From a virus (lineage: Duplodnaviria > Heunggongvirae > Uroviricota > Caudoviricetes): DNA of 30,664 nucleotides. Shown here in pieces: positions 1,034 through 1,123 of this stretch. The translations under genes were made by a program, and so were the position numbers. Numbering within the stretch: position 1 is the first letter of the stretch; each line of letters starts with the position of its first letter. Under the pieces are notes generated by a model. The model was not told the DNA's origin, searched no databases, and saw only the letters and a program-made list of their open reading frames with translations. The DNA lies in IMG/VR virus record IMGVR_UViG_2802429251_000007, positions 1-30,664 of that record. The stretch is one strand, 5' to 3'.

Positions 1034-1123
1034 GTGCTGGTTCTGAAATGTGCGCTGGCTATTGCGGCTGTAATGGCAATTTATTGTCTTGCTGTTGTTC
1101 TTATGGATCGCCTTTCTGATTGA
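1034..1123 (+). CDS. small hydrophobic peptide (29 aa, GTG start, VLVLKCALAIAAVMAIYCLAVVLMDRLSD)
   Basis: Not in ORF track. GGGAGG 5 nt upstream of GTG at 1034; TM-like helix with charged C-terminus; resembles small membrane toxins in layout only. Confidence 0.3.
   Translation: MLVLKCALAIAAVMAIYCLAVVLMDRLSD

Follow-up and report, generated by a model that had tools for sequence, protein, structure and literature searches.

In the window – the whole stretch of DNA analysed here, 30,664 nucleotides in length – a 29-codon open reading frame with its own Shine-Dalgarno (SD) sequence lies directly upstream of a hok/sok cassette and is oriented in the same direction. The features of the locus are as follows:

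968-996, plus strand: putative sigma-70 promoter of the small gene, with a -35 element TTGAAG (968-973), a 17-nt spacer and a -10 element CATATT (991-996)
1023-1028, plus strand: Shine-Dalgarno sequence GGGAGG, separated from the start codon by the 5-nt spacer TCATC (1029-1033)
1034-1123, plus strand: the 29-codon gene, with a GTG start (1034-1036), 28 further sense codons and a TGA stop (1121-1123)
1131-1159, plus strand: hok promoter (TTGGCG, 17 nt, TAGAAT), with the -35 element at 1131-1136 and the -10 element ending 7 nt before 1166
1166-1340, plus strand: hok mRNA leader with the Sok target, matching Rfam RF01794 (sok) over the full model (1-157) at 108.6 bits and E 1.6e-25
1278, plus strand: mok-type start, inside the hok mRNA leader
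1335-1490, plus strand: coding sequence of the hok (HokD-type) toxin, 51 aa, matching Pfam HOK_GEF at 77.9 bits
about 1561-1588, plus strand: intrinsic terminator after hok, with a 7-bp stem containing 5 GC pairs and a T-run

The hok gene is named 'hokD' by PGAP in a near-identical genome, and the terminator that follows it is the first convincing plus-strand terminator downstream of the small gene. A preliminary description of this DNA had noted a near-consensus SD 5 nt before the GTG and a position just upstream of the hok leader; both are confirmed, and the small-gene stop codon is 8 nt before the hok -35 element and 43 nt before the 5′ end of hok mRNA (1166).

Translation of the 29-codon frame, with the initiator read as Met, gives VLVLKCALAIAAVMAIYCLAVVLMDRLSD, a hydrophobic peptide with the character of a single helix, a lysine at position 5, and a DRLSD tail. 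The proposal that it has a single transmembrane helix is well supported: the Kyte-Doolittle maximum is 2.76 over 15 residues, and AlphaFold2 run on the family alignment predicts one helix spanning residues 2-29 (pLDDT 92.8). If the gene is translated, its product is almost certainly a membrane peptide. Conservation within the family is block-like and peaks in the C-terminal half (AVxxIYCLxVxLM(D/E)RLSD, with the consensus tail ..AV(M/V)xIYCLx(V/I)xLM(D/E)RLSD), and because of this pattern the peptide sequences suggest a specific contact rather than generic hydrophobicity.

Reading frames of this type are rarely expected by chance. We scanned both strands of the window for frames of 20-50 codons having a strong SD (GGAGG, GGGAG or AGGAG) 4-8 nt before ATG, GTG or TTG, and a Kyte-Doolittle mean over 15 residues that reached 2.5 or more; the 29-codon frame is the sole match, and 200 first-order Markov randomisations averaged 0.005 matches. 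In the mechanical list of open reading frames, VLVLKCALAIAAVMAIYCLAVVLMDRLSD is the C-terminal part of a 51-aa frame beginning at TTG 968. This longer frame was rejected, as its upstream part is unconserved and most variants have no start there, the GTG alone being universal.

Comparison of close relatives shows that the small frame is well-conserved. The 84 loci collapse to 33 unique 158-mers, all with start, frame and stop intact and with no indels, and among 34 unique close variants the frame is intact throughout, the TGA stop being replaced once by TAA. No start other than the GTG with its SD is common to all of the close variants. The leader varies at 18 of 26 positions around an invariant GGAG core, compared with 23 of 90 positions in the ORF, and 13 of these 23 variable sites are at the third codon position (p=0.019), as are 27 of 46 Fitch events on a UPGMA tree (p=4e-4); these p-values are soft, since the close variants have few independent substitutions and are related by descent. 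Their pairwise dN/dS is 0.32, lower than in any other frame that remains open; the open minus-strand frame has 0.76.

With an identity of 90-95%, the close variants may be of recent origin, and one reading is that there is no functional gene, the frame having been kept open by chance, by constraint at the DNA level, or by recent spread of the module. Such an account would also fit the near-complete lack of PGAP calls, and the finding that the last ~23 nt of the ORF accompany the hok promoter in three loci (L085, L086 and L091), where they may simply be DNA upstream of a promoter. More distant relatives argue otherwise. In these deeper comparisons, which encompass five lineages and 28 codons, the ORF DNA is 66-82% identical to the window and dN/dS is 0.19-0.29 with dS at 0.5-1.5, such that the peptide is kept where synonymous change is near-saturated. 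The copy on the Shigella virulence plasmid (pINV) has an ATG start and differs from the window at 16 of 90 nucleotides, yet at only six residues; the allele of E. coli TA447 (L135) has one additional codon, in frame; a 34-aa version typical of Shiga-toxin strains (L133) has a different N-terminus with the helix and tail retained; and the gene is also intact in the diverged lineages L138 and L161. Start and stop codons are swapped in ways that preserve function and the one indel is in frame. An SD core (GGAGG, GGAGA or GAGG) is present in almost all variants and diverged lineages, constant amid a diverging leader, and in the six sequences compared only the small-gene frame is free of stops in all, each of the other five frames being stopped somewhere. 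Together with the rarity of chance matches, these observations make it quite improbable that no gene is present. Because frame, start, stop and SD are kept across diverged lineages with dN/dS values of 0.19-0.32, the comparative data argue strongly that the 29-codon ORF is a real coding gene, and we consider this very probable. The preliminary description had raised an independent small toxin as one option, and the part of this reading that concerns an independent small gene with its own SD is borne out, with the ORF intact in every complete copy inspected, across five sequence types.

Two other frames overlap the gene and are open in the window, a 64-aa minus-strand ORF (935-1129) and a Cys-rich plus-strand frame (985-1119), and the annotators of phage HannyBb called two minus-strand coding sequences here. 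That either frame is the true gene is extremely unlikely. The 64-aa frame has the high dN/dS noted above and contains stops in L133, L138 and L161, and read in this frame the variation would fall mostly at codon position 1; the Cys-rich frame has at least one stop within the span of the ORF in every sequence compared. The HannyBb calls were rejected, as only the small-gene frame is stop-free across the six lineages.

The gene is widespread and is largely overlooked by annotation. Of 5,426 complete E. coli genomes, 1,967 carry the segment 1008-1130, for the most part with 90-95% identity. The preliminary description had referred to the ORF as uncalled, and this holds for nearly all of the 1,967 carriers, in which PGAP leaves it blank, but not universally, since a 29-aa hypothetical protein of the family, WP_000960667.1, is called in RefSeq in at least one genome. 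RefSeq/GenBank entries of the family also include WP_001278454.1 (34 aa) and WP_249534103.1 (30 aa), and in protein databases its members, from Escherichia and Enterobacteriaceae, bear no label other than 'hypothetical protein' or 'membrane protein'. A profile search of 1.84 billion representatives recovered 17 family proteins in all. The exact window peptide forms cluster P0021, present on 146 contigs, and at least 278 IMG/VR contigs carry the ORF, as do four deposited phages (Tritos, Evi, mEp460_ev081 and HannyBb). A copy is present in an E. coli B derivative (L131, 1501-1590); in the B strain NEBExpress (NZ_CP174526.1) it occupies 2843822-2843911, immediately before hokD. An 82%-identical copy is found on the Shigella virulence plasmid, in 124 Shigella plasmid records. 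The second sequence type, MSDDISLAMEGALAVVAVVGVYCLVVFLMDRLGN, is 34 aa long and corresponds to the PGAP hypothetical protein WP_001278454.1; it is found at 1,467 places in 672 E. coli genomes, Shiga-toxin-producing strains often having several, and the genome examples listed are clinical Shiga-toxin-producing isolates.

No known family was recognized. A Pfam scan of the peptide at E<=10 returned no families, the best match among Pfam, NCBIfam, PHROGs and PADLOC profiles has an E-value of only 0.74, and the literature on the hokW/hokD context, searched together with peptide strings and WP accessions, makes no mention of the small peptide. From the sequences recovered, the family is most likely restricted to Escherichia and Shigella, with members of 29-34 residues each forming one hydrophobic alpha-helix. 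The boundaries of the module around the gene vary, being at ~965, 1008 or 1034 on the left and at ~1101, 1137 or 1150 on the right, and the small gene occurs with or without hok, as hok does with or without the small gene, a pattern like that of prophage morons.

The Shigella plasmid copy has a context of its own. In S. flexneri pWR501 (L129; NC_002698.1, ~220130-220340), a block homologous to window positions 1011-1218 contains the intact small gene with its ATG start, the hok promoter and ~50 nt of the hok leader, with hok itself gone. Because the block sits ~290 nt upstream of icsP, a prophage hok remnant is part of the long icsP upstream region.

The relationship of the gene to hok is of particular concern, as the preliminary description had raised the possibility of a mok-like frame or a part of the hok regulatory region. 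This does not stand. Because the stop codon at 1123 precedes both the hok promoter and the start of the hok transcript, the ORF is neither mok-like nor part of the hok leader, and the mok-type frame is found elsewhere, starting at 1278. Furthermore, other hok loci do not have the ORF, and the ORF persists without hok. In 44 hok loci from Escherichia, Shigella, Kluyvera, Photorhabdus, Pantoea, Erwinia, Citrobacter and others, homology with the window starts from ~1147-1169, and the ORF is present in only one; in three of the 44 the homology starts from 1101, giving a 23-nt ORF remnant after a queH-like gene. The hok cassette (1166-1600) itself has 10,862 occurrences, distributed over 4,721 of the 5,426 E. 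coli genomes.

Two features of these loci are worth recording. In L085, L086 and L091 (~976-1000), all that is left of the small gene is its terminal 23 nt (..ATGGATCACCTTTCTGATTGA), immediately after the queH-like (DUF208) gene, marking a recombination junction inside the ORF. In Photorhabdus (L110 and L120), hok genes are repeated in tandem at intervals of a few hundred nt.

Where the small gene is present, hok usually follows. Among the first 93 loci, hok follows in 86 with a near-fixed distance of ~212 nt from the stop to the hok ATG, the remainder being contig ends, insertion-disrupted or decayed, and the diverged alleles P0044, P0045 and P0049 also precede a HOK_GEF gene. When IMG/VR was scanned with a degenerate pattern of the conserved core, a search unbiased with respect to this question, 120 phage loci were returned, 103 with hok after the small gene and 17 with no hok. 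In the 17 hok-less loci the ORF, SD and upstream motif are intact, and unrelated DNA begins just past the position of the hok -35 element. For the L138 allele, whose contig ends 145 nt after the stop, an exact 38-mer has no match in IMG/VR.

This close pairing raises the question of whether the gene is an accessory of hok/sok, either through a peptide that partners Hok – as an enhancer, an antagonist, or a timer of killing or lysis – or through a transcript that extends hok mRNA at its 5′ end by read-through, which would alter hok/Sok dynamics. The pairing is kept in lineages with different upstream genes and an ORF DNA identity of only 66-76%, and no terminator separates the ORF from hok. In addition, the prophage hokW-sokW of Sakai prophage 5 influences phage release (PMC8621323), and a partner in lysis timing is conceivable. 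However, intact copies of the ORF without hok, in 17 of the 120 phage loci and on pINV, show that the small gene is maintained without hok, and most hok copies work in contexts without the ORF. Hok and its leader are 93-95% identical to the window beside ORF alleles differing by 25-35% – the leaders adjacent to the L133 and L135 alleles among them – and hok sequence does not co-vary with the peptide alleles. Finally, a 30-nt insertion between the ORF and the hok promoter is tolerated in L133. On these grounds an accessory role is improbable, although the near-constant position before hok in the unbiased scan could reflect a functional tie that our preferred explanation, an autonomous small gene, plays down.

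A tblastn match to a Photorhabdus Hok (55% over 20 aa) led us to consider whether the ORF might be a decayed copy of the N-terminal part of hok. This was rejected, as the profile score is not above that of shuffles, there is no DNA repeat shared by the ORF and hok, and there is no Pfam match.

The regions between and replacing these genes have features of their own. The L133 insertion (~2660-2690), between the small-gene stop and the hok -35 element, includes a 22-nt perfect palindrome, CGATATGGGAATTCCCATATCG. In the hok-less loci (L144, L161 and 15 other IMG/VR loci), a conserved non-coding stretch of ~230 nt lies directly 3′ of the small gene and has at its end a strong GC hairpin, AGACCCGTCGGGGATAGCCCTGCCGGGTCT, with A/T runs on either side; an sRNA and a bidirectional terminator are both possibilities for this stretch.

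The sequence upstream of the small gene looks like a weak promoter of its own. The elements at 968-996 match the consensus at 8 of 12 positions, below the promoter-scan threshold, and would place the transcript start at ~1003, yielding a leader of ~30 nt before the GTG. Among 32 distinct upstream variants, drawn from four backgrounds that include the Shigella plasmid, 26 retain the pattern TTGA(A/G)N, 17 nt, CATATT although the spacer sequence has diverged. It is missing in L131, L133 and L135, where the ORF closely follows another gene; because of this, the phage early-right transcript would have to suffice in these lineages. We found no conserved intrinsic terminator between the small-gene stop (1123) and the hok start (1166), and since there is none, small-gene transcripts should continue into the hok cassette. 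A candidate terminator hairpin within the ORF (1058-1077) was rejected, being weak and with its stem lost in L135 and L133. A direct repeat, ATATTGAAGCA / ATATTGAATCA, at window positions 965-975 and 992-1002 and spaced by 27 nt, overlaps the putative -35 and -10 elements, and could be a regulator binding site instead of, or as well as, a promoter.

Further upstream, at 789-872 on the plus strand, lies another very small hydrophobic ORF, which encodes 27 aa, MTWPEAFTTVGITMAVALVVYAICRWG. Its ATG overlaps the stop of a 263-aa ORF (1-792) in an ATGA arrangement, and this overlap suggests that the two are translationally coupled. Diverged homologues are recognizable at the protein level in L087 (MTWPEAFTTVGIAMAVALVVYSICRWG) and, after a DUF551 gene, in L133 (MNWPEAFAITGVAMAIAFLVYVICRWG), and the 27-aa ORF probably likewise encodes a genuine small membrane protein missed by annotation. 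Between it and the 29-codon gene is a minus-strand terminator-like hairpin with a T-run at 883-903, AACGTCTGTGTGCGGGGCGTT TTTTAATACC, for which no minus-strand gene or promoter was identified. The hairpin is confined to the window-type upstream context, and window positions 880-1160 are present at 80% coverage or greater in only 24 genomes.

The size and composition of the peptide raise the question of whether it is a toxin. It has the general properties of type I toxins – fewer than 60 aa, hydrophobic, with a predicted transmembrane helix – and its 29 residues, one transmembrane helix and short charged tail resemble TisB, ZorO, DinQ and ShoB, in a prophage location beside a proven toxin family. 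It might therefore depolarise or permeabilise the inner membrane, and be kept in check by a cis-antisense RNA, by read-through from Sok, or by a trans-encoded RNA. Those variants with a T at 1127 have a minus-strand TTAACT, 18 nt, TAAAAT from which an antisense RNA would start near the ORF stop, and the hairpin at 903-883 could act as a minus-strand terminator in the window. However, the antisense -10 element reads TGAAAT in the window and in about half of the variants, and the -35 element is lost in L135 and pINV.

Signs of an antisense or structured RNA are otherwise sparse. Rfam yields no RNA family over the ORF on either strand and only sok at 1166-1340, and a consensus scan for a conserved minus-strand promoter near the ORF found none, although such scans are insensitive and also missed the Sok promoter that has to lie within 1230-1330, which makes the lack of an antisense RNA weak evidence. 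No complementarity to the translation start region is present within the window at up to 3 mismatches. The leader and ORF have a structure z-score of +0.39, and folds on either strand are no better than those of shuffles. A local hairpin over the SD and start in the window (-11.9 kcal/mol) is equalled by 18 of 200 shuffles, and five other lineages do not preserve it (-2.8 to -9.1 kcal/mol; z -0.4 to +2.5). A structured RNA element or sRNA at the ORF was therefore rejected, given the shuffle-level folds, the unconserved start hairpin and the lack of an Rfam match.

The SD and start codon of the small gene are thus not consistently sequestered, unlike those of the hok, tisB and zorO mRNAs, in which the SD and start are sequestered. 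A lethal peptide would be difficult to accommodate behind a conserved sigma-70-like promoter and a strong SD, and neither PADLOC, Pfam nor NCBIfam profiles match. Because no antisense promoter or RNA was found, the start is not sequestered, and an accessible strong SD is positioned behind a promoter-like motif, the wiring mildly disfavours a toxin, and we regard a type I-like toxin as unlikely, if still a reading to be reckoned with. We infer a non-toxic peptide from wiring alone, and many small hydrophobic peptides are toxic on overexpression.

The explanation that we favor, by a little over an even chance, is that the 29-codon ORF is an autonomous prophage gene coding for a small inner-membrane protein, usually but not obligatorily located before hok. 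Within the nin region of lambdoid prophages, where it lies between Q and the replication genes, it would form a cistron of its own and be transcribed rightward on the phage early-right transcript; in most lineages, including the window, the weak sigma-70 promoter at 968-996 probably adds to its transcription. The transcript would run on into the hok cassette, there being no terminator between, and translation would start at the GTG using the strong and largely unsequestered SD. The peptide is predicted to insert in the inner membrane, and because of Lys5 and the acidic tail an N-in/C-out orientation is likely for the window allele. Its conserved C-terminal half would then mediate its action within the membrane, where the peptide would most likely be tolerated and modulate a larger membrane component of host or phage, instead of forming a lethal pore. 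We put a non-lethal modulator at about even odds, ahead of a type I toxin. It is doubtful that it is a Hok partner tuning the timing of killing or lysis as an antagonist or co-toxin, or a toxin placed under Sok/RNase III control through read-through into the hok leader, but were either true, a single antisense RNA would govern a two-peptide membrane module.

If translated, the gene represents an uncharacterised family of small membrane proteins largely missed by annotation, and for catalogues of small proteins it is a clean comparative-genomics positive skipped by the pipelines. It is relevant to studies of prophage accessory genes acting at the host membrane, and those working with prophage hok/sok systems should be aware that clones or deletions described as 'the hok locus' can differ in whether they contain it. 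The understanding of hok/sok itself is unchanged unless the peptide is indeed a partner of Hok.

Comparison with known systems places these alternatives in context. Like Hok/Gef proteins (PF01848), the peptide is small and prophage-borne, with a single N-terminal transmembrane helix that contains a Cys, and it is encoded in the same neighbourhood, but its resemblance to the Hok transmembrane segment is weak, compositional, and not above compositional expectation, a custom Hok HMM scoring it at 5.2 bits, which is equalled by 134 of 2,000 composition-preserving shuffles. Hok is ~50 aa rather than 29 aa and has a periplasmic TRKxLCE..E/Y domain (with the motif R-K/D-x-L-C-E) that is absent from the small peptide, which ends five residues past its helix. 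The small-gene mRNA also differs from hok mRNA in being without a mok frame or Sok-type antisense, and tac/fbi pairing elements were not seen. With mok it shares the position of a short same-strand ORF 5′ of hok, but mok starts inside hok mRNA and overlaps hok, whereas the 29-codon ORF ends before the hok promoter.

Short type I toxins of E. coli include TisB and ZorO (29 aa each), DinQ (27 aa), ShoB (26 aa), Ibs (18-19 aa) and Ldr (35 aa). The peptide is similar to these in length, in its one hydrophobic helix and short charged end, and in its expected membrane target, but it has no sequence similarity to them, no NCBIfam match and no antisense partner that could be found; moreover, its leader is short and unstructured with an accessible SD, in contrast to the long, structured and translationally inert mRNAs of the short type I toxins. 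E. coli also has small inner-membrane regulatory proteins, such as AcrZ, MgtS and KdpF-type peptides with a single transmembrane segment. The small gene differs from these, and from prophage morons, in having no terminator of its own and no homology to any of them, but it resembles the two groups in its product of fewer than 50 aa with a single transmembrane helix, in ordinary SD-dependent translation, in a variable presence among related prophages and in a candidate promoter of its own.
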